DNA of 64,000 nt. Origin: Patescibacteria group bacterium. GTDB taxonomy: Bacteria > Patescibacteriota > JABMPQ01 > JAQVVF01. The notes beneath the pieces were generated by a model, which did not search any database, was not told where the DNA came from, and saw only the letters and a program-made list of their open reading frames with translations. Each line of letters opens with the position of its first letter. The stretch's first letter is position 1. Position numbers and translations under genes: made by a program. The stretch is from positions 165,234-229,233 of the forward strand of contig JBAZSC010000002.1 in assembly GCA_041662665.1 (NCBI GenBank). The letters run 5' to 3'. Below are positions 1 through 61,300 of this stretch, one piece after another.

Positions 1-372
1 AAAACTTATGAAATTAGATTAGAAAACGACAAAGAAGTTGATAAAAAATTAGTCTCTGAAGAAAAAACTCTAGAGCCTCAAAACAAAATTATAGTTTATG
101 GTACAAAAAAACATCCACAAGGCAAGGTAATTACTGGCGGTCGAGCAACTTACTATTACGGTCCAACTATCGCAGCATGCAATCTTTTTCCCAAAGGAAC
201 CAAACTTCGCGTTACTAATGTAGATAATGGCCAGAGTATTGAAGTTATTGTTGACGATACCGGCGGTTTTGGCTGGCCGACAGTAATTGATCTTCGCCAA
301 GATTATTTTGAAAAAATCGGCGGTACAACAAATGCCGGCATTATTAATGTTACAATAGAAGAAATCCTTTAG
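1..372 (+). CDS. Partial (5'-truncated) cell-wall-binding protein with G5-like and 3D (RlpA/MltA-like double-psi beta-barrel) domains
   Basis: An open frame runs from nt 1 to the TAG at 370-372. The translation GGRATYYYGPTIAACNLFPKGTKLRVTNVDNGQSIEVIVDDTGGFGW... is typical of the 3D domain found in YabE/Rpf/MltA proteins. The listed minus-strand ORF 70..393 is its antisense shadow. Confidence 0.6.
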   Translation, partial: KTYEIRLENDKEVDKKLVSEEKTLEPQNKIIVYGTKKHPQGKVITGGRATYYYGPTIAACNLFPKGTKLRVTNVDNGQSIEVIVDDTGGFGWPTVIDLRQDYFEKIGGTTNAGIINVTIEEIL

Positions 373-567
373 AATGCCTAAATCTATTGCCAAATTGCTA
401 ATCCTATGCTAAAATCAAAGAACTAGAATAATTTTAAATAAAACAAACAGTGTTCAACAATTTAGCAATTGAACAATTAAAAATTTTGGAATACAAAATT
501 TTTAAGCAATTCAACATATTTAACCAATCTAACTAGTCTAACCAGTTTAACTCATTAATCAATACGT

Positions 568-2645: not shown

Positions 2646-3245
2646 ATGATAAAAACTATTATCTTTGATATTGATGGAATGATTATTAAGAGAGAAATGT
2701 ATTTTAGCCAATATTACTCACAAAAATTCAAAGTTCCTATAGAAAAAATGCTTCCATTTTATAATAATAAATTTCAACTTTGTTTAATTGGAAAAGCAGA
2801 TCTAAAAAAAGAAATTGCCAAATATCTAAATCAATGGAAATGGAAAAAATCAGTCGATGATTTTCTCTTACTTTGGTTCAAATACGAAAGCAATCTAGAT
2901 AATAAAGTTTTGGAAAGCATAAAAAAATTGAGAAAGAAAAAGATCAATTGTTATATTGGTACTGACAACGAAAAATATCGTGTCAACTATCTACTTAACA
3001 ATCTGAAATTAGCAAAATATTTTGATGGAATTTTTGCTTCATCCAAAATTGGTTACCAAAAATCACAACAAGAATTTTGGTCACAAGTCTACAAAAGTCT
3101 TAAGCAACCTAACAAATCAGAAATCCTATTTTGGGACGATGATCCAAAAAACGTAAAGTCAGCACAAGATTTTGGCTTCAACGCTAAAGTCTATACTAAC
3201 TTTTCAGATTACGAAAACAAAATAAAATTATTAATTAACATTTAA
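2646..3245 (+). CDS. HAD-superfamily hydrolase
   Basis: The N-terminal motif IIFDIDGMI is HAD motif I (DxDG), and a C-terminal motif WDDDPKNV is also present. Confidence 0.7.
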   Translation: MIKTIIFDIDGMIIKREMYFSQYYSQKFKVPIEKMLPFYNNKFQLCLIGKADLKKEIAKYLNQWKWKKSVDDFLLLWFKYESNLDNKVLESIKKLRKKKINCYIGTDNEKYRVNYLLNNLKLAKYFDGIFASSKIGYQKSQQEFWSQVYKSLKQPNKSEILFWDDDPKNVKSAQDFGFNAKVYTNFSDYENKIKLLINI

Positions 3246-5607: not shown

Positions 5608-6597
5608 ATGTCTAAAGTTATTTTCTCAGGTATTCAACCAAGTGGAGAATTACACATTGGCAATTATTTCGGTGCAATTAAAAACTGGTTAGAATTACAA
5701 AAACAAGAAAGTCTTTGCTATTTCTGCGTTGTTGATTTACATGCCATTACTATCGATTATGATCCAAAACAATTTCAAGACAAAATTCTAGACACTATAG
5801 CAACTTATCTTGCGTGCGGAATTGATCCAGAAAAATCAATTATTTTTGTTCAATCAAAAGTCAAAGAACATGCTGAATTAGCCTGGCTTTTAAACACTAT
5901 TACTCCTATTTCCGAGCTTGAAAGAATGACTCAATACAAAGATAAGCGCGCCCAACATATCAAAAACGTTAATATTGGCCTTCTAGATTATCCAGTTTTA
6001 CAAGCCGCCGATATATTGCTTTATAATACAAACATCGTTCCAGTGGGCCAGGATCAAAAACAGCATATTGAATTAGCAAGAACTATTGCCAATAAATTCA
6101 ATACTAAATTTGGAAAGACTCTTACAATTCCAGAACATTTCATTCCAGAAGTTGGCGCTAAAATTATGTCGCTTCTTGAGCCAACCAAAAAAATGTCCAA
6201 ATCCCATAATCCAAAATCATATATTTCTTTATCTGATTCCAAAGAACATATTGAGAAAAAAATAATGTCAGCAGTTACTGATTCTGATAATAAAATATTT
6301 TTTGATCCAGAAAAAAAGCCAGCTATTTCAAATCTATTATCAATCTATCATTTAGCAACTGGCTGGACTTTGCAACAAATTCAAGATAAATATAAAGATT
6401 CAACTAGCTATGCCCAATTTAAAAAAGATTTGGCAGAAAATATAATAAAATTATTGCAACCGATTCAAGATAAAAAACAAGAATTATTAAAAGACGAAAC
6501 TAAGCTTTTAGAAATCTTAGATAATAGCACCAAAAAAGCTCAAACCGAAGCTACAAAAACAATGCTTATTGTTAAGAAAAAAATGGGTTTAATTTAA
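5608..6597 (+). CDS. trpS: Tryptophanyl-tRNA synthetase
   Basis: The class I HIGH motif (GELHIGNYFGA) and the KMSKS motif are present. The length is 329 aa. Confidence 0.9.
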   Translation: MSKVIFSGIQPSGELHIGNYFGAIKNWLELQKQESLCYFCVVDLHAITIDYDPKQFQDKILDTIATYLACGIDPEKSIIFVQSKVKEHAELAWLLNTITPISELERMTQYKDKRAQHIKNVNIGLLDYPVLQAADILLYNTNIVPVGQDQKQHIELARTIANKFNTKFGKTLTIPEHFIPEVGAKIMSLLEPTKKMSKSHNPKSYISLSDSKEHIEKKIMSAVTDSDNKIFFDPEKKPAISNLLSIYHLATGWTLQQIQDKYKDSTSYAQFKKDLAENIIKLLQPIQDKKQELLKDETKLLEILDNSTKKAQTEATKTMLIVKKKMGLI

Positions 6598-54407: not shown

Positions 54408-54740
54408 TTATTTTTCTCTCCATTTTCCTTCTAAAACACTAGCTATATCATCCAATACATCAACAAGCTTTCTATTTGAATATTCAGGATGCCCCTCAAT
54501 TTCAGGAGTCATTATATCTAGTGACTTTCCATTAAACTTTAAATCACTATAATTAGCTTTTAATTTGTCCAAATCTTTAATAATCGTCTGCTTTTCGACC
54601 TCATCCTTATTTAACAGAACTTTATCAAGCGCTTTGACTGTATCTTTAAGTTCACCTTCCAACAGACCTATTTCACGTGCTTGATCTTTTTCATCTTTTA
54701 TTCCCAAATCTTCTGGGCTTGGTCCTTCATTTTCTACCAT
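54408..54740 (-). CDS. Hypothetical protein
   Basis: The 110-aa acidic ORF has no recognisable motif. Confidence 0.4.
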   Translation of the reverse strand: MVENEGPSPEDLGIKDEKDQAREIGLLEGELKDTVKALDKVLLNKDEVEKQTIIKDLDKLKANYSDLKFNGKSLDIMTPEIEGHPEYSNRKLVDVLDDIASVLEGKWREK

Positions 54741-54851
54741 AAATTTTTGTATTAATTAATAATAATTTTAAAAATTTTTTGTTATTTTTAATTTCTAATT
54801 TATCATTTACATTTTACCCCCCCCTATTATTTGTAAAGCCAGCACCTGTGG

Positions 54852-54879
54852 ATAAAAAAACGAACTACAAGAGTTCGTT
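54852..54879 (-). terminator. Intrinsic terminator downstream of small ORF 54897..55085
   Basis: On the minus strand, a perfect 8-bp stem AACGAACT-CTTGT-AGTTCGTT is followed by TTTTTTT. Confidence 0.6.
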
Positions 54880-54896
54880 ATAAACAAAGAACAAAA

Positions 54897-55085
54897 TTAC
54901 ACACCGTAAAAACCAGTTGACTCAGTAATAGGCTTCCTATTAGGATCACGTGTTGTGTCAACAAAAGTCACACAAATTCTCAAGTTATTTCTACCATCAA
55001 TCACCAATCCCTGCTTTTTTGCTTCCACATTTCGAGATTCATTTTCCAGCAAGTACGTAAGCAACAATCTTTTCAGTGCTCTCAT
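54897..55085 (-). CDS. Small hypothetical protein (62 aa) preceded by a conserved leader motif and terminator hairpin
   Basis: The ATG at 55085 is preceded by the RBS GAGGAGGGAAGGAAG, and the product is MRALKRLLLTYLL.... The ORF-track start at 55136 adds 17 aa that overlap the RBS and are unlikely. Confidence 0.45.
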   Translation of the reverse strand: MRALKRLLLTYLLENESRNVEAKKQGLVIDGRNNLRICVTFVDTTRDPNRKPITESTGFYGV

Positions 55086-55120
55086 CTTCCTTCCCTCCTC
55101 TTCTGGTCTGTGGCCAAGGT

Positions 55121-55214
55121 GCAAAATAAAGAACAAAAAACCACTGACTGCAGTGGATTGTTTCTTTGCTTTTTAATTTAGGCAATCAAACAATTCACCG
55201 CTGTCCGTGGCTAA
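55121..55214 (-). promoter_or_regulatory. Conserved leader element: motif TTAGCCACGGACAGCGGTG, spacer, GC hairpin CCACTGCAGTCAGTGG and T-run (candidate attenuator or small RNA); paralogous to 59826..59911
   Basis: The two copies are about 75% identical over some 45 nt, and each ends in a CCAC...GTGG hairpin followed by a T-run on the minus strand. Confidence 0.35.
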
Positions 55215-55370
55215 AAAAGAAAAAATATCTATTTGTTAGTATATTCTTTTTCATCAAATTAAATATAATCTAATAAAAATAATTAGTCAAGATTTTATTA
55301 TCAACCAAAAAAAATTAAAAAATATAAAAAACAGGCATTTTGTTTTTGCCTGTTTCATAATTTTTAATCT

Positions 55371-58300
55371 TTATTCAAAAAAGAAATCTTGACTATCCGA
55401 TGTTTCAGAATTTGTTAAATTAGATAAAGCATTTTTCTCAGCAATCACGAATTTAATCTTTTTCAATGTTCTAAAATAGAAAGATGGAGCAAATGGTCTG
55501 TTCTTTGTTTTAATATCTAGCGGATTTGGAATTGGATTCTTTGGAGGTTTTACTAGATAATTTCTAATTTTAAATTTCAGAGTATGAGTTGTTTTGTTTT
55601 GATATATTCTGTATGGTCCTCGCCAGATGTTGTCTCTGTCTTTGATGAATAATCTTAAATTCTTTTCTTTAATATTTGTCTTGTTTAATTTTGTCTTGGA
55701 ATATCTAACTGAAACTCTGAAATTAATATGTTTATTAACATTTTTTTGATAAGCTTTTTTGACTGTGCCGATATTTGATAATAGTTTTAAATAACCAGGA
55801 TAGCTGTTCTTCTTAGTAAATCCATTTAGATGTTTCTTCTTGTTTCTGATTAATTTAATGTAGAGATCTTTGATTACTTTTTGTTTTGGAAGAAGATAGA
55901 AAAGAAGATCTGCATTATCTGTAACGCTTTGATAGGTTTGATTTAGAATTACGTTTTCTAAATTAAGTTTTTCGGTAAAAAGAATGGCTGAAATGATAAC
56001 ATAGTTTTCTGTTTTGATACTTTCTGTATGGCCTAAAATGTCAACTGAAAAGAATTTAAGTGTTGCTGTTTCAGAAATTGTAATTGGCGTTGTGTATTGT
56101 GTTGATAACGTAGTTGGATCTATACCATCAAGTGTATAATATGTTATTGCTGTTTCATCTGTTGTTAAAGTTACAGCTTGAGCGTTATCGTATGTTCCAC
56201 CAGCTGGAGTAGCAGTTGTTACTGGTGCTTCTGTATCAATGATAACAGAACCAGTTGCTGACCAATCAGATATATTGTCAGCTATATCTACTGCATTGAC
56301 TCTAAAATACCAAGTACCATCAATCAAAGAAATTGTATGAGTAAAAGAGTTTGCTATTGCAGTTGAGATATTCAAATCACAACCAATAAAGCTTGAATTA
56401 TCGCACCATTGTACATTGTAAGCTGGATCACCTAGTCCTGAAGTTGTATCTGTTGATGCTGTCCATGTCCATTCTGGCTTGTTATTATTAGTTGGTGAGG
56501 TTGTTATAGGATCACCTGGAATTGAAGGAGGTGTTGTGTCAATTTGAACTAGATAACTGTTGTAATTGTTAGATGGATCATTATCAAGATTAACAGCGAT
56601 CGTATGAATATACCAAACTCCATCTGAAGGAACAGTTGCAGTAAATATGCCATCTGCATCAAAAGTACCAGCAAGTACTTCAACTTGAGTTGGTGTTGAA
56701 TTTTGAGAAACTAGATAATGATAATTTGTTGTAGAAGATCCATTGGATGATAATGACATATCAACTAATGCATCTGAATACCAAGTAACATGGGATGGAT
56801 GAGATGATGATGTAAATGTTGGATCTGGTGGTGTAACATATTCATACGCTCCCATATCATAATAGTCTACTGCACCTGCTCCTGTATTTACTACATCTGG
56901 ATCATCATATCTTTGCTTGCCAGCATAGTCAGTGGCAATATCTGTGTCGTAACCAGCATCGATGGCTGGAGAATCAGATTGAAGATGAAAGTCCGATCCA
57001 AAAGTTACAAATTTTGGATCAGTTATAATACTGCCTGTTCCACCTTCATTAGATGAATTATAGTAATCATTATATGAAATACTTTGTGTTCCAGCAGTAC
57101 TCGACAACACATCCGTAATGTTATAAAAAATATCATCTTTAAGATTAAGCGTTCCACCGCTCTGATTGATAAAAATACTTCCTGCAGAAGCTCTCCAAAA
57201 AACACTGTTATAAATATTAGCTGTCCCGCCAGCGAGTGTTATAAATGTTGTAGGAGCAATATTCATCACCTTTGATGCTATATTCAATGTTCCGTTGGTC
57301 ACAGTAAACGTGTTTGATGCGCCCATTGTTGGAGTATCAACAAGAGTGAGAGTTCCACCAGGAGCGTTAAGAGTTAAATTTTTTCCCCAAGTATTACCAT
57401 TTGTAGTCAGAGTATAAGATGATCGCCCTTCGAAAGTATACAATTGTGTCGATGCCGAAAACGTCCAGCTTGCAACAGGAGCAAGGGTCAGCGATCCAAA
57501 TATACTTGTAGCAGTACTTGTTGTGAAAGTCGGATTATTCGTAATGCCAGATTCTCCATTTAAACCTAAAAAAGTGGTAGTCGATATACGAGGCATATCC
57601 TGTATCAAAGTCATTCCTGTTGAACCAAAAGATGCCGAATCAAAAATAGCTGTGTCTTGACAAAGAGGCACGCGGCCAGCACCACCAATACCTCCAGAAG
57701 ATAGATACCAATTACCATCAGTACTCCAATTATTGCTAGCCCCGCTTAACTTGTACCAATATTGAGGAGTAGATGTTGTAAATAAAATACTGGAATTACC
57801 ACCACAATCCCCGCTTCTACCCGAAATATTACTCAGATCGTTCATAGATGCTAATTCCCATGTAACGGCAGAATAAATAGTATTAGCAATAGCTGCATAT
57901 CCAGCAGCAGACGGATGTAAATGATCACCATTATCATAAATTGGAAGAAGTTTATCCGGATCTGATGGATCTTCTAGAGCAGTATAAGTTTCAGCAACTA
58001 TATCCACGTCTGTAGCGCTATTTTGAATCCAATCATTGATCTGATCAGTTTTAATCTGTGCTGCTTCATACCACTCTGAATGTCCTTTCCATGGTGTTAT
58101 TTTTGCGGCAATTACAGTGAGACCTGCAGTTTTTAACGCGGTATACATGCTTTGCAGATTAGATTCAGTGCTCGCCACACTGTATCCGCTGCGTATGTCA
58201 TTCACTCCACCTAATACAATCGCATAACGAACATTCTGCAAGCTTGTGATAGAAGAAATTCTAGCAAGCATCGCATCGGTCTTTTGCCCATCGACACCAA

Positions 58301-59324
58301 AATTATATACACCGTATCCATATTCATTTGAATTTAGCTCTGTCGTCAAAAATTGAGGATAGGAACCATTATTTGCAGGTGTAGGATAACCTCTTGTAAT
58401 ACTGTCCCCAATAGCACCAATTGACTTAGTCGGCAAAGAAACATCGCGAAAATCTGTATTTGAGATAGAAATAGAAATAGCATTTATAATTCGTCGAAGG
58501 TTGATAGTGTCTGAGGCAACCAACATCCGGTTTGTCGAACTATTTCCGTTAATGGTTAAACTGTGTGTAACTGTAATATCTCCAGCAAGTGTAAATGTGT
58601 TGGTTTTACTGTTTGTGCCAGTTCTAGTCAGATCATAAAATGAGATATTTCCTGTGAGAGTATGAGCCGTTCCACTAAATGAAACTGCATGTGCATTAGG
58701 ATCAAAGTATCCAGAATTCAAAGCAAAAAGAACAGCTAAACCGAAATCCACATTGCTTGCTAGTTGTAATGTCCCAGTACCGGACATAATAAGAGAAGTC
58801 TTTATTTGAACACCGTTTGTGTTTAATGTTGTGGTAGTCCCAGTTGCTGGCGCAAAACGAGTGTATCCGCCACCATCTCCATAGGTCATACCTGATACCA
58901 GCACTGTTGATCCATATGAAAAAAGTGATACTCCTCCTGCAATAAATAATGTCGGATTTCCAGTGGCCGGATTAGCCCATGTAACATTATTACAATAGCC
59001 TGTGGCATTAACATTAACACTGTACGAATTAGCTGATGAATTGGAATCAAAAAAACAATTATCACTAGAGGTTGGCAGATTGCCTGCATCAGGACTGCCA
59101 CCAGACGTAGCTGCCCAATGAGTTGCAGCATCGCTCCAATTTCCTGAACCACCTACCCAATATCTTTCCGCTGCACTCGCCACCGCACCTCCAAAAAAAC
59201 AAACTCCCAAAACAAAAAAAAGACTCAAAAGAATCTTGTATTTTGAAATACCAAAAAATTTTACCTTTCCATTAAGCCCCCCCCCTCGTACTTTTTTGTT
59301 TATTTTTGTATTAAAAAAATACAT
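55371..59324 (-). CDS. Large secreted SGNH/GDSL-hydrolase-domain surface protein with beta-helix and Ig-like domains, a CHB_HEX_C-like domain and the shared Lys-rich C-terminal module
   Basis: A signal peptide precedes the GDSL motif IGAIGDSITRGYPT and a later DHLHPS. The protein also has YYTLDGIDPT and the shared C-terminus. A G9 tract lies at codons 13-15. Confidence 0.75.
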   Translation of the reverse strand: MYFFNTKINKKVRGGGLNGKVKFFGISKYKILLSLFFVLGVCFFGGAVASAAERYWVGGSGNWSDAATHWAATSGGSPDAGNLPTSSDNCFFDSNSSANSYSVNVNATGYCNNVTWANPATGNPTLFIAGGVSLFSYGSTVLVSGMTYGDGGGYTRFAPATGTTTTLNTNGVQIKTSLIMSGTGTLQLASNVDFGLAVLFALNSGYFDPNAHAVSFSGTAHTLTGNISFYDLTRTGTNSKTNTFTLAGDITVTHSLTINGNSSTNRMLVASDTINLRRIINAISISISNTDFRDVSLPTKSIGAIGDSITRGYPTPANNGSYPQFLTTELNSNEYGYGVYNFGVDGQKTDAMLARISSITSLQNVRYAIVLGGVNDIRSGYSVASTESNLQSMYTALKTAGLTVIAAKITPWKGHSEWYEAAQIKTDQINDWIQNSATDVDIVAETYTALEDPSDPDKLLPIYDNGDHLHPSAAGYAAIANTIYSAVTWELASMNDLSNISGRSGDCGGNSSILFTTSTPQYWYKLSGASNNWSTDGNWYLSSGGIGGAGRVPLCQDTAIFDSASFGSTGMTLIQDMPRISTTTFLGLNGESGITNNPTFTTSTATSIFGSLTLAPVASWTFSASTQLYTFEGRSSYTLTTNGNTWGKNLTLNAPGGTLTLVDTPTMGASNTFTVTNGTLNIASKVMNIAPTTFITLAGGTANIYNSVFWRASAGSIFINQSGGTLNLKDDIFYNITDVLSSTAGTQSISYNDYYNSSNEGGTGSIITDPKFVTFGSDFHLQSDSPAIDAGYDTDIATDYAGKQRYDDPDVVNTGAGAVDYYDMGAYEYVTPPDPTFTSSSHPSHVTWYSDALVDMSLSSNGSSTTNYHYLVSQNSTPTQVEVLAGTFDADGIFTATVPSDGVWYIHTIAVNLDNDPSNNYNSYLVQIDTTPPSIPGDPITTSPTNNNKPEWTWTASTDTTSGLGDPAYNVQWCDNSSFIGCDLNISTAIANSFTHTISLIDGTWYFRVNAVDIADNISDWSATGSVIIDTEAPVTTATPAGGTYDNAQAVTLTTDETAITYYTLDGIDPTTLSTQYTTPITISETATLKFFSVDILGHTESIKTENYVIISAILFTEKLNLENVILNQTYQSVTDNADLLFYLLPKQKVIKDLYIKLIRNKKKHLNGFTKKNSYPGYLKLLSNIGTVKKAYQKNVNKHINFRVSVRYSKTKLNKTNIKEKNLRLFIKDRDNIWRGPYRIYQNKTTHTLKFKIRNYLVKPPKNPIPNPLDIKTKNRPFAPSFYFRTLKKIKFVIAEKNALSNLTNSETSDSQDFFFE

Positions 59325-59436
59325 ATTTGTTTTTCTTATATAAATTTTGATAATCTAAGTATACCACATCTAAAAGAAAAAATTATCCACAAAAAAAGAG
59401 CGTCAAAACGCTCTACTCAAAAAAAGAACAAAAAGA

Positions 59437-59667
59437 TCAGCCGAGTTGTCCGAAATTGGAATGAATCAAAGGATTAAAACGCGAACCGTACTCACGTTCA
59501 AATTGCATTTCAACATCATTCAAATCCTTTCGATTTTTGCGATACACGTAAATGAGCTTTTCATGATCAGTCATCTCATCCCATGTCTTCGTCTTCATCT
59601 TCTCTCTTCCTCCTTTTCCGCAGGCACAGACACTACAAGGAGTCGTACAATTGCAGACCATACTCAT
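59437..59667 (-). CDS. Small Cys-rich hypothetical protein (N-terminal CNCTTPCSVCAC)
   Basis: The RBS AGGAGGGAGGA precedes the ATG. The ORF has higher GC than its surroundings and is preceded by the conserved leader motif/hairpin. Confidence 0.45.
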   Translation of the reverse strand: MSMVCNCTTPCSVCACGKGGREKMKTKTWDEMTDHEKLIYVYRKNRKDLNDVEMQFEREYGSRFNPLIHSNFGQLG

Positions 59668-59762
59668 TTTCCTCCCTCCTTTTCCTCTCCTCTCTCGCAG
59701 ACAAAATGAACTAATAATTATTAGCAGATTTGTGAATAATTATCAAGACATTTTGACAATCA

Positions 59763-59830
59763 GATGTCGGATGTCGGAAGTCGGAAGTCGGAACGTTCCG
59801 AAGTTCTGACGCTCCGACGTTCCGACGCTC
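59763..59830. repeat. GC-rich GTCGGAA / CGTTC(C/T)GACG repeat with dyad symmetry; the same family is in frame in tsaB (32330-32372)
   Basis: The sequence is gtcggatgtcggaagtcggaagtcggaacgttccgaagttctgacgctccgacgttccgacgctcc. Confidence 0.65.
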
Positions 59831-59911
59831 CAAAACAAAAGACCACCGGCATCGGTGGCTAGTTTATTTCAAAATATAGAAACTAAACATCACACCGCTG
59901 CCTGTGGCTAA
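59826..59911 (-). promoter_or_regulatory. Conserved leader element copy 2: TTAGCCACAGGCAGCGGTGTG, spacer, hairpin CCACCGATGCCGGTGG and T-run
   Basis: See 55121..55214. This copy lies about 170 nt upstream of ORF 59437..59667. Confidence 0.35.
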
Positions 59912-60053
59912 TAATAATGCTAATAATCAATTCAGTTTTAAGAACATTATTTTTCATCAATTTAATTTTAGCCTACAAAAAATTTCCAGTCAATAATTTT
60001 TATCAACAACTTGTTTTCTTGTTTCGTTGTTTCTTTGTTTTCGCCGTTTCCCC

Positions 60054-60083
60054 TTGACTTTTCTTTTTCATACAGTGTAATAT
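60054..60083 (+). promoter_or_regulatory. Near-consensus sigma-70 promoter (TTGACT-18 nt-TAATAT)
   Basis: The -35 element TTGACT is at 60054-60059 and the -10 element TAATAT at 60078-60083. About 55 nt downstream lies the RBS GGAGGA and the ATG at 60143. Confidence 0.5.
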
Positions 60084-60142
60084 ATTTAATAACAGTTTAC
60101 ACTCGCACCCTACAATCCCGAGGGAAACAAGGAGGAAGAGAA

Positions 60143-61300
60143 ATGCAATACTTGTTCCAAACACCACAGCAGAATCAACCGATTCATCAGCATCCATTTG
60201 TTTGGTGCAACGGCAGATTTTATAACATTCAAGATTTCGGTTTTCCAGTTTCTAAGCATGGTTTTCATTATGGCACAACAACGTTTGGCGGAACTGGCGT
60301 TCGCAAATGTATTGATGGAAAACATCGTATTTTCAGAGCAGAAGATCATGCCCAGCGATTTCTAGATCATGCCCAAGGCTTTGGACTTAAAGTTCCTTTC
60401 TCAGCTAAAGATATTCTTAATGCTTGCGTAGAAATCAGTCGGCGAAATATGCCAAGTTTAAAAACAGAAGATCTCTATTTACGCATGGCACTTGATCCAT
60501 TTGATCAATACCTTGGCGTTGGCTCTTCTGAACAAACAGATGTGGTCATTCTCGCTCAAGACTTAACCCAATACTTAAAGATTGCTGAAGGACGAACTGG
60601 CGCTTCATTGCTATTGCCAGGACAACAACTGTTTCGTAGAGGCGATGAAACTGTTGGGCTTCCTTTCTTCAAAAGTGCTATAAATTACGGACTTGGAAAT
60701 ATGTGGAAGCGTATTGCCCACCATTTTGGCGCAGTTGAAACTCTCGCTGCCGGACCAAGTTCAAACAGTTTGAGCGAAGCAACAGGAGCTTGCCTATTTG
60801 TTATCAAAAATGACGAAACGATTGCAACTCCTAGTCTTGATTACATGTGTCTAGATAGTATTACCAGACGAACAGTGCTTTGGATTCTTAGAACACTGAA
60901 TATTTTTGTTCATGAAACTCGCATCTCCGAAATTGATGTTCTATCTGCAAAATGCGTTTTTCTTGTCGGAACTTGGGCTGGACCAGTTTTCATTGAAGAA
61001 ATCCTTCATGATATCAGCACTCCAAGTATTCCAAAAGAAATTTTAACCGCTAACAATGGAAAAAATTTCTTTCAATATATTCTTGACAACCTGCATCCTA
61101 CATCGTATATGTTTCCAACATCAGGCGAGCATTATGATTTTTTCAGAAAAGTTGAAAGGATTTATTGGGACATTGTTCGTTGTAATTTCTCTGCCTTGCC
61201 ATCAGAATTTGTTATTCCAGAAAACTGGCACACATTGATTCCTCCTTCAGCTCCAAAAGAACCTGTAATCGATCCCGAAGATATTAAAGATTGGCCTTAA
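60143..61300 (+). CDS. Class IV (fold type IV) PLP-dependent aminotransferase family protein (BCAT/DAAT/ADC-lyase-like)
   Basis: The start is taken at the ATG at 60143, preceded by a strong RBS. The ORF-track N-terminal 44 aa lie upstream of the RBS and promoter and are unlikely. The motifs FVWCNGRFYN...FHYGTTTFGGTGV...RIFRAEDHAQRFLDHAQ match fold-IV transaminases. Confidence 0.6.
   Translation: MQYLFQTPQQNQPIHQHPFVWCNGRFYNIQDFGFPVSKHGFHYGTTTFGGTGVRKCIDGKHRIFRAEDHAQRFLDHAQGFGLKVPFSAKDILNACVEISRRNMPSLKTEDLYLRMALDPFDQYLGVGSSEQTDVVILAQDLTQYLKIAEGRTGASLLLPGQQLFRRGDETVGLPFFKSAINYGLGNMWKRIAHHFGAVETLAAGPSSNSLSEATGACLFVIKNDETIATPSLDYMCLDSITRRTVLWILRTLNIFVHETRISEIDVLSAKCVFLVGTWAGPVFIEEILHDISTPSIPKEILTANNGKNFFQYILDNLHPTSYMFPTSGEHYDFFRKVERIYWDIVRCNFSALPSEFVIPENWHTLIPPSAPKEPVIDPEDIKDWP

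Follow-up and report, generated by a model that had tools for sequence, protein, structure and literature searches.

Two paralogous candidate leader-peptide attenuators with phenylalanine and isoleucine codon runs in a Patescibacteria genome

A 64,000-nucleotide stretch of DNA from a Patescibacteria group bacterium (assembly GCA_041662665.1, contig JBAZSC010000002.1, positions 165,234 to 229,233; hereafter the window) carries on its minus strand two related copies of an element of about 170 bases, each located upstream of a small orphan open reading frame (ORF). Both elements are probably leaderless, ribosome-mediated (leader-peptide) transcription attenuators, of which one would sense phenylalanine and the other isoleucine. 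A first-pass annotation of this DNA had recognized a leader motif and a terminator hairpin at 55121–55214 and again at 59826–59911, and it had proposed an attenuator, a riboswitch-like element, or a small RNA. The sequences and minus-strand positions that it gave are present as described, and the small ORFs that it placed 3′ of the elements (54897–55085 and 59437–59667) do have strong ribosome-binding sites (RBSs) of the GGAGG type. That description captured the 3′ half of each unit and missed about 75 nt of further similarity upstream, with a promoter and a short ORF. Most likely, the sensor overlooked in this way is a leader peptide, translated from an ORF that contains a run of Phe or Ile codons. 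Among the functions proposed, the attenuator is backed by folding and by 10 homologous variants; the riboswitch-like option did not hold up, as no ligand-binding aptamer was found.

The motif TTAGCCACRGRCAGCGGTG occurs exactly twice in the window, at 55196–55214 (copy 1) and 59893–59911 (copy 2) on the minus strand, and the chance expectation is 0.01 matches in 64 kb, even with up to three mismatches. Downstream of each occurrence, a terminator scan flags a CCACYG-loop-CRGUGG hairpin with a T-run. In a pairwise alignment of the two copies, the likeness extends about 75 nt beyond the motif on the upstream side and comprises a promoter (TTGACT-17-TATATT or TAAAAT), the block TAAWTTGATGAAAAA, and a short ORF. 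The promoter, the position of the ATG, the motif, and the terminator are common to both copies, and each unit reads in the same order: promoter, ATG, an ORF of 19 or 24 codons, GCCAC-N3-CAGCGGUG, an inner hairpin, CCACYG...CRGUGG, a U-run, and an orphan ORF led by a Shine-Dalgarno (SD) sequence.

Motif searches for further copies in the window yielded just these two and, with a looser pattern, a third GCCAC..CGGTG match at 658–673, which lies within a 71-aa ORF that we take from its sequence to be secG and which we treat as a chance match. A covariance-model search of the kind that the first-pass annotation had suggested revealed no third copy in the window. The model, R1, scores the known copies at 105–128 bits; run on the window with filters off, it returned the two copies and their mirror-strand hairpins alone, with the next match at E = 0.8, and it found no extra copy in the window or in other loci of the related assemblies. 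A script that looked for terminators preceded by short ORFs with homo-codon runs detected copy 1 and a few chance ORFs that overlap a longer minus-strand ORF; it passed over copy 2 because the T-run of that copy is interrupted.

Both promoters are of the sigma-70 type and match the consensus at 10 of 12 positions. That of copy 1 (55262–55290, minus strand) consists of TTGACT, a 17-nt spacer, and TATATT, and that of copy 2 (59965–59993, minus strand) of TTGACT, 17 nt, and TAAAAT; in each case, the ATG follows 7 nt after the −10 element, with TAAWTTG between the two. TTGACT and an ATG located 7–10 nt after the −10 element are kept in all seven variants for which upstream sequence is available. 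The leader mRNA is therefore predicted from this arrangement to be leaderless.

The leader ORF of copy 1 (55195–55254, minus strand) encodes 19 codons and a stop, MKKNILTNRYFFFFSHGQR. Its Phe run, UUU UUC UUU UUU (55213–55224), ends 1 nt before GCCAC and is the proposed stall site. The orthologous peptides, MIKKNLQTSRYFFFFSHGQR, MESLQINRYYFFFFSHGQR, and MRYTQINRFFFYFFSHGQR, are related to it by an in-frame indel and some synonymous changes. In copy 2, the leader ORF (59883–59957, minus strand) has 24 codons and a stop, MKNNVLKTELIISIIISHRQRCDV, with the orthologs MKNNVLKSGLIISIIISHRQWWNV, MKYFSGQQLIIDIIISHRQRWNV, and MKYFSEQQLIISIIINHR, the last shown to its stop. Here the cluster AUU AUU AGC AUU AUU AUU (59910–59927), five Ile in six codons, likewise ends 1 nt before GCCAC. 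The final codons of both leader ORFs are the motif itself, AGC CAC GGA/AGG CAG CGG UG, and in copy 1, the stop codon UGA overlaps CGGUGA.

Comparison of the 10 variants, which come from six closely related assemblies, shows how this arrangement is conserved. The leader ORF is kept in all nine full-length variants at 18–24 codons, and its differences in length are whole codons (19 versus 20 in the Phe type, 23 versus 24 in the Ile type). Among orthologs, the codon run does not change its amino acid, which is Phe in the first lineage and Ile in the second: all five Phe-type variants have FFFF or five Phe in six codons, at an invariant placement, and all five Ile-type variants have IIxIII, with the five Ile retained throughout and one encoded by a synonymous AUC. 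In 10 of 10 variants, the run ends exactly 1 nt before the helix described below. The N-termini of the peptides drift (for example, MKKNILTNRY, MIKKNLQTSRY, MESLQINRYY, and MRYTQINRFFFY), and synonymous changes occur along the ORF (CTT to TTG for Leu, ATT to ATC for Ile, AGC to AGT for Ser, ATA to ATC, AAC to AAT, and CAC to CAT). At the 3′ end of the ORF, the substitutions CGG to UGG (R to W), AGC to AAC (S to N), and CAG to UAG (Q to stop) each keep or improve a base pair. Judged from these patterns, the 3′ end of the leader ORF is constrained as RNA and not as peptide, and the reading frame, the in-frame indels, and the synonymous changes point to translation of the leader.

Short peptides rich in Phe or Ile, a highly structured mRNA, and paralogous copies would also suit a small membrane peptide or a locus resembling a type I toxin-antitoxin system, with the hydrophobic peptide as the product and its translation controlled by the long 5′–3′ pairing. 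We consider this explanation very improbable. The peptides of 18–24 aa have polar or charged residues within or beside the run (IIDIII, SHRQR) and are too short for a membrane helix, their C-terminus appears constrained as RNA, and no conserved antisense promoter was found in the window, L046, or L145 (two related contigs introduced below), where a single 9/12 match is at chance level.

The RNA features that follow the codon run can be divided into four regions. In copy 1, the 5′ strand (55196–55211), GCCAC-GGA-CAGCGGUG, holds regions 1 (GCCAC) and 2 (GCGGUG); it is followed by an inner hairpin (55157–55195; AUUGUUU..UUGC / GCAA..AAACAAU) and by a local intrinsic terminator formed by regions 3 and 4 (55135–55156; CCACUG-CAGU-CAGUGG and UUUUUU). 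The corresponding parts of copy 2 are the 5′ strand GCCAC-AGG-CAGCGGUG (59893–59908; regions 1 and 2), the inner hairpin (59860–59892; GUUUA.UUUC / GAAA.UAAAC), and the local terminator (59832–59859; (G)CCACCG-AUGC-CGGUGG(U) and CUUUUGUUUU), all on the minus strand. From the ATG to the U-run, the minimum free energy (MFE) fold of both copies is a long hairpin, with z = −5.5 for copy 1 and −3.6 for copy 2 relative to dinucleotide shuffles. In this hairpin, GCCAC pairs with GUGGU, which is the 3′ arm of the terminator and one U; the terminator loop provides partners for the three variable bases; CACYG(C) of the 5′ arm is the partner of (G)CGGUG; and the variable inner hairpin caps the stem. The motif is thus the 5′ strand of a 19-pair hairpin and pairs with both arms of the terminator. 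An alternative pairing of GCCAC and CGGTG with these arms had been anticipated in the first-pass annotation and is borne out by the MFE folds of both copies and by the 10 variants.

The 3′ segment of the long hairpin can fold instead into the small CCACYG/CRGUGG hairpin, and the two structures are mutually exclusive. A third helix, the candidate antiterminator (G)CGGUG:CACYG(C), corresponds to alignment pairs 24–29 with 71–76 and is paired in 100% of cells across the 10 variants; it excludes the 3:4 hairpin because columns 71–75 are common to both. Two further pairings were considered and set aside: a conserved 1:2 hairpin, since GUGG is present in only some Ile variants, and a pairing of the codon run with the downstream SD, which is possible for the Phe type only and so is rejected as a general feature.

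All three helices are conserved. RNAalifold applied to eight sequences recovers the same 19 pairs as the long hairpin. Across the 10 variants, 98.9% of 189 cells are standard pairs, compared with 35–56% when the 3′ partners are slid by 1–3 columns. Helix 1, the outer 14 pairs, is 100% paired, although eight of its pairs vary, and the local terminator is 100% pairable in 10 of 10 variants; the terminator scan flags it in the window, L046, and L145. The positions at which copies 1 and 2 differ covary (GAC/GUC versus GGCA/UGCC), and the inner hairpin of copy 1 varies in sequence with its pairing kept, as at pair 34/66, which occurs as GC, AU, and GU. The fifth pair of the terminator, 74/82, occurs as UA, UG, and CG; because its 3′ member, column 82, is a bulge in the long hairpin, this variation supports the small hairpin specifically. 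The substitutions within helix 1 are about eight C-U exchanges opposite G, one G to A opposite U, and one compensatory switch between AU and GC. There is no G to A opposite C and no transversion, whereas the unpaired columns of the alignment contain many of both. Since C to T and G to A are mirror images at the level of DNA, this asymmetry indicates selection on the RNA of this strand.

To mimic a ribosome, we refolded eight sequences with a mask that began at the 5′ end and reached 12 nt beyond the first base of the A-site codon. Without a mask, the predicted structure is the long hairpin, and its base adjoins the U-run directly. When the A site holds the stop codon, the local terminator forms in 8 of 8 sequences. 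When it holds the second-last regulatory codon, what remains in all eight is the CGGUG:CACYG helix atop the inner hairpin, and the 3′ arm and the bases before the U-run are unpaired. The same 2:3-helix-only state is predicted in seven of the eight with the last regulatory codon in the A site.

These predictions suggest the following mechanism. Transcription from the sigma-70-type promoter would start at or a few nucleotides from the AUG, and a ribosome coupled to RNA polymerase would initiate on this leaderless mRNA and translate the leader ORF. The FFFF or IIxIII run lies immediately 5′ of the last codons, and these codons form the 5′ strand of the long hairpin. Region 1 is GCCAC, region 2 (G)CGGUG, region 3 CCACYG, and region 4 CRGUGGU, followed by the U-run. 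If no ribosome were present, or if it had been released, regions 1:4 and 2:3 would pair, and the long hairpin abutting the U-run would cause termination. A ribosome at the stop codon would cover regions 1 and 2, so that the 3:4 local terminator would form, again with termination as the outcome. In the event of Phe-tRNA (or Ile-tRNA) starvation, the ribosome would stall with one of the last two regulatory codons in the A site (in copy 1, it would cover AGCCACGGA); region 1 would then be covered and region 2 free, 2:3 would form, and region 4 would be left with no partner. With no hairpin at the U-run, RNA polymerase would read through into ORF-A (downstream of copy 1) or ORF-B (downstream of copy 2). 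The inner hairpin would serve as a spacer and as a nucleation site for the 2:3 helix. In short, the stalled ribosome would remove the base of the terminator stem, and termination would be expected when the leader is either untranslated or fully translated; copy 1 would be tuned to phenylalanine and copy 2 to isoleucine.

A translation-independent attenuator or RNA switch could in principle use the same conserved alternative structures. In such a case, the short ORF would be spurious, and a protein, tRNA, small RNA, or metabolite bound to the inner hairpin or to the 5′ strand would decide whether the local terminator or the long hairpin forms. In favor of this view, no SD precedes the leader ATG, and the T- and ATT-rich tracts, being of low complexity, could serve as binding sites or form ORFs by chance. 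The folding does not favor this proposal. Both alternative folds put a hairpin at the U-run, so that switching between them would leave termination unchanged, and read-through is predicted only on occlusion of region 1 alone. No conserved multi-helix aptamer that would bind a ligand or tRNA was found in the alignment, where the only conserved structure is one hairpin, the apical part of which, including the loop and sequence of the inner hairpin, varies freely. A scan of the whole window at the Rfam gathering thresholds returned a single tRNA and nothing else. At E ≤ 10 with permissive filters, the region 54800–60100 gave just sub-threshold chance matches of the eukaryotic miRNA and snoRNA type on the hairpin, and no leader family or T-box; the first-pass annotation had likewise been unable to assign a riboswitch class. 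Together with the reading frame, in-frame indels, and synonymous changes that point to translation, these results make a translation-independent switch quite unlikely.

For copy 1, the dependence of the downstream gene on the leader can be examined more closely. ORF-A (54897–55085, minus strand), an orphan of 62 aa and the presumed regulated gene, has the SD GAGGAGGG and starts 49 nt after the U-run; a terminator at 54859–54879 (minus strand), detected by the terminator scan, closes the unit. No other promoter was found in the 49-nt spacer between the Phe U-run and ORF-A, and the gene upstream of the Phe element, which encodes a 1317-aa protein, is followed by a stem-loop and a T-run that we read by eye as a terminator. 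Because a promoter of its own was not found and the upstream gene ends in this terminator-like stem-loop, ORF-A seems to depend on read-through. The spacer (55086–55134, minus strand) contains GGCCACAGACCAG, a near-copy of the 5′-strand motif AGCCACGGACAG; it is probably non-functional, since it is not conserved in L128, which has AGCCAAAG.

These features bear on a simpler explanation, in which the elements and ORFs are independent small genes. Each element would then be a stand-alone unit with a promoter, a short hydrophobic peptide or structured small RNA, and a strong terminator, with no regulatory coupling to the ORF that follows, and the long hairpin would be an extended terminator or a stabilizing 3′ structure. 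Each unit does have its own promoter and terminator, the long hairpin abuts the U-run and should itself terminate transcription, and a conserved promoter-like site in the Ile copies could drive ORF-B alone. Terminated leaders, moreover, often persist as small RNAs. We nevertheless regard uncoupled units as unlikely. ORF-A lacks a promoter in its spacer and is insulated from the upstream gene, as described above. A plain terminator needs neither a 100% pairable 3:4 hairpin beside the long helix nor a codon run fixed 1 nt before that helix in all 10 variants. The tolerance of the peptide C-terminus for R to W, S to N, and a premature stop and the drift of its N-terminus are unlike a functional peptide, and the element-to-ORF arrangement is kept in every element-bearing genome.

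Several observations weigh against leader-peptide attenuation and temper our confidence in it. Neither leader ATG is preceded by an SD, although the neighboring genes have very strong ones. In five of the seven homologs with upstream sequence, the ATG lies 9–10 nt after the −10 element, which predicts a 5′ untranslated region of 2–4 nt, a length that is not ideal for leaderless initiation. The genome is AT-rich, and low-complexity tracts such as T6CT6 and (ATT)n trivially encode Phe and Ile. The phylogenetic depth offered by six closely related assemblies is shallow: most of the pairing signal consists of wobble-preserving transitions and one paralog-level compensatory switch per helix, and the two pairs with full compensation largely trace back to the one split between the paralogs. 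The predicted read-through state rests on the assumed ribosome footprint, and the one exception to it is the Ile copy of the window, for which a stall at the last Ile codon still predicts the terminator; its 2:3 helix has five pairs. ORF-B may be expressed independently of read-through, as discussed below, which weakens the case for the Ile copy. Finally, neither ORF-A nor ORF-B has a link to Phe or Ile of the kind expected of a target in amino acid synthesis, uptake, or charging, and bacteria of the Candidate Phyla Radiation (CPR) largely lack amino acid biosynthesis.

The proteins of the window are recorded as "MAG: Patescibacteria group bacterium" (metagenome-assembled genome [MAG]), and its DNA is low in GC. 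The window also carries holA and polA, and we take other ORFs, from their sequence or from the annotations of relatives, to be uvrB, ruvA, and rpsS20. A pattern scan of genome contigs, with a pattern that proved too GC-rich, identified one true homolog among the matches listed, L046 (Patescibacteria MAG STF1_73); the rest were chance matches in high-GC genomes. A more specific pattern scan of metagenome contigs gave three chance matches in GC-rich contigs and no homolog. Further assemblies were reached through homologs of the DNA polymerase III delta subunit (HolA) and of a class IV aminotransferase and, in one case, through an ORF-A ortholog. Both modules are present in L046 and in L142/L143; L145 has both, with the Ile module cut off by the start of the contig; L126/L127 have the Ile module only; and L128–L130 have the Phe module at the start of the contig. 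The elements are confined to this narrow clade, in which the order is invariable: the aminotransferase on the opposite strand, the Ile leader, ORF-B, the Phe leader, ORF-A, and HolA. The two module types form distinct lineages in L046, L126, L128, L142, and L145. A recently duplicated terminator flank, which the first-pass annotation had named as the alternative, is accordingly rejected: each type is conserved as a lineage of its own in several genomes. More distant relatives, with HolA 41–72% identical, do not have the element, and there HolA is directly adjoined by PolA or has a different neighbor; these relatives therefore provide no deeper alignment.

The spacing of the two modules differs between genomes. 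In L046, L142, and L145, they are adjacent, and in the window genome alone, they are separated by the inserted gene for the 1317-aa surface protein (55371–59324, minus strand), which has GDSL-lipase, CHB_HEX_C, and Fn3-associated domains. A 110-aa orphan ORF between ORF-A and HolA (54408–54740, minus strand) is also found in the window genome alone. In L138–L141 (positions ~1–120, minus strand), all from one JGI sample series, the Ile-leader promoter is intact, the sequence after the ATG is unrelated (ATGGAACTCATATTAAGTTGTTAG...), and the contig then ends. The contigs L128–L130 of the same series start just upstream of the Phe leader (positions 1–25), where the upstream sequence is different. 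Either the assembly broke at the paralogous repeats, or the contigs come from a strain whose Ile module and ORF-B have been replaced.

Intergenic repeats are a further feature of the locus. Directly 3′ of the Ile terminator (59765–59836, minus strand) is a hairpin of about 60 nt (−37 kcal/mol, z = −3.7) built from tandem units of 7–8 nt (GTCGGAAC) and their complements. The same site holds a diverged version in L126 and a different short-unit filler (CGAATTGCAC-like) in L046, L142, and L145, and in L131, the interval from polA to holA contains (GTGAAYTT)n. Filler made of short repeated units seems characteristic of intergenic DNA in this clade.

Neither small ORF resembles a characterized family, and the protein searches turned up no relatives of them beyond the clade. 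A word-based protein search with ORF-A returned only itself, and a full HMMER search of 1.8 billion cluster representatives gave two relatives, one ortholog (P0034) and a weak repeat-protein match that is probably spurious. The variants of ORF-A and ORF-B have no significant match in Pfam or NCBIfam, and Cfr-like matches at E of about 1e-3 were rejected, as they reflect Cys spacing alone. Single-sequence AlphaFold2 models reach a predicted local distance difference test (pLDDT) score of 71 for ORF-A and 59 for ORF-B, and a Foldseek search of the PDB with the ORF-A model found nothing with E < 1.

ORF-B (59437–59667, minus strand) is an orphan of 76 aa with a Cys-rich N-terminus, CxCxxxCxxCxC, and its own terminator at 59397–59414. 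Its orthologs, at ~2958–3104 (−) in L046, ~5775–5921 (+) in L126, and 283–534 (+) in L145, are 48–83 aa in length and have only this N-terminus in common; their C-terminal halves are completely different, a divergence that is unusually fast for a conserved gene position. The ORF starts about 170 nt after the Ile element, and the interval consists of variable filler and a 48-nt block (59705–59752, minus strand; AAATG.CTTGATAATTATTAATAAATCTGTTAATAATTATTAGTTCATTT) located between the Ile terminator and the RBS of ORF-B. This block is near-invariant in five genomes, with flanks that cannot be aligned, and it contains the palindrome TAATTATTAA-N8-TTAATAATTA and the promoter-like site TTGATA-18-AATAAT (59717–59746, minus strand). 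It is possible that the block is a second promoter or an operator for ORF-B.

The class IV aminotransferase (60143–61300, plus strand) is always head-to-head with the Ile leader. Its nearest family is the branched-chain aminotransferase IlvE (127 bits against a cutoff of 279), and its best PDB matches are IlvE proteins; it has a C-terminal extension of about 95 aa and six close relatives only among 5.8 billion proteins. Escherichia coli IlvE transaminates phenylalanine too. The aminotransferase is the sole thematic link to Phe and Ile in the locus, and this link is suggestive only, because the gene is divergently transcribed and not expressed from the attenuators. The gene and the two modules together resemble an island that was inserted between polA and holA.

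To our knowledge, leader-peptide attenuation has been documented almost exclusively before genes for amino acid biosynthesis, transport, or tRNA charging in free-living bacteria. A fuller picture of the locus, to which we give slightly less than even credence, is that a presumably auxotrophic CPR lineage monitors charged Phe-tRNA and Ile-tRNA through a pair of leaderless leader peptides, paralogs of each other, that each precede a nested "terminator within a terminator", the output being two clade-specific micro-proteins encoded beside a divergent branched-chain-type aminotransferase. If this picture is right, the two modules would constitute a small ribosome-directed starvation regulon, and ORF-A and ORF-B would be marked as starvation-response effectors that might act on the aminotransferase or on the relationship with a host. 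Reduced, host-dependent bacteria would then use the ribosome to gauge how well they are supplied with specific amino acids, and the elements would offer a handle on nutrient sensing in such symbionts. A promoter-proximal ATG followed by a homo-codon run and then by a nested terminator also provides a search recipe for more sensors in unannotated metagenomic genomes.

The two elements share several features with well-studied attenuators. Classical leader-peptide attenuators include trpL, pheL-pheA, ilvL/ivbL, hisL, and leuL in Proteobacteria, with similar leaders in Actinobacteria and Firmicutes (PMC3082878, PMC1262725, PMC5794164, PMC10272879), and pheL leaders contain internal runs of Phe codons (PMC3082878). 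As in these systems, a short ORF with clustered codons for a single amino acid is followed by an intrinsic terminator before the structural gene, and the antiterminator uses the 5′ arm of the terminator. A stalled ribosome favors the antiterminator and a ribosome that is absent or at the stop codon favors termination, which here is predicted by folding. The distance from the regulatory codons to the U-run, about 80 nt, is approximately that of trpL. The Phe_leader, Leu_leader, Thr_leader, His_leader, and Trp_leader families of Rfam, which are defined on proteobacterial sequences, belong to the same functional class and give no match at the level of sequence or covariance model. Unlike the classical leaders, the present leader ORF has no SD and is predicted to be leaderless. 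The classical layout is serial, with a 1:2 pause hairpin, then 2:3, and then the 3:4 terminator, whereas the present topology is nested, the 2:3 antiterminator being the inner part of a larger terminator hairpin (1:4 and 2:3). The targets are orphan proteins of 48–83 aa in place of biosynthetic enzymes, transporters, or tRNA synthetases, and the host is a Patescibacteria/CPR organism. In full-text literature searches, no paper on Patescibacteria or the Candidate Phyla Radiation was found that also deals with leader peptides or transcription attenuation.

A closer parallel for the leaderless ORF comes from mycobacteria, in which leaderless short ORFs with polycysteine codon runs act as amino acid attenuators (Canestrari et al., bioRxiv 10.1101/834739). 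That system reportedly acts on translation, by unmasking an RBS, rather than on a terminator (10.1101/834739). The two systems would have in common a leaderless short first cistron, a homo-amino-acid run as the sensor, a stalled ribosome that remodels the downstream RNA, and several loci that respond to one amino acid signal. The differences would lie in the output, which here is formed by an intrinsic terminator and its U-run, in the amino acids sensed (Phe and Ile instead of Cys), and in the targets, which are not metabolic genes for those amino acids. Overall, the two Patescibacteria elements have the structural hallmarks of a leader-peptide attenuator and depart from the known examples in lacking an SD, in nesting their hairpins, in their orphan targets, and in the phylum of their host.

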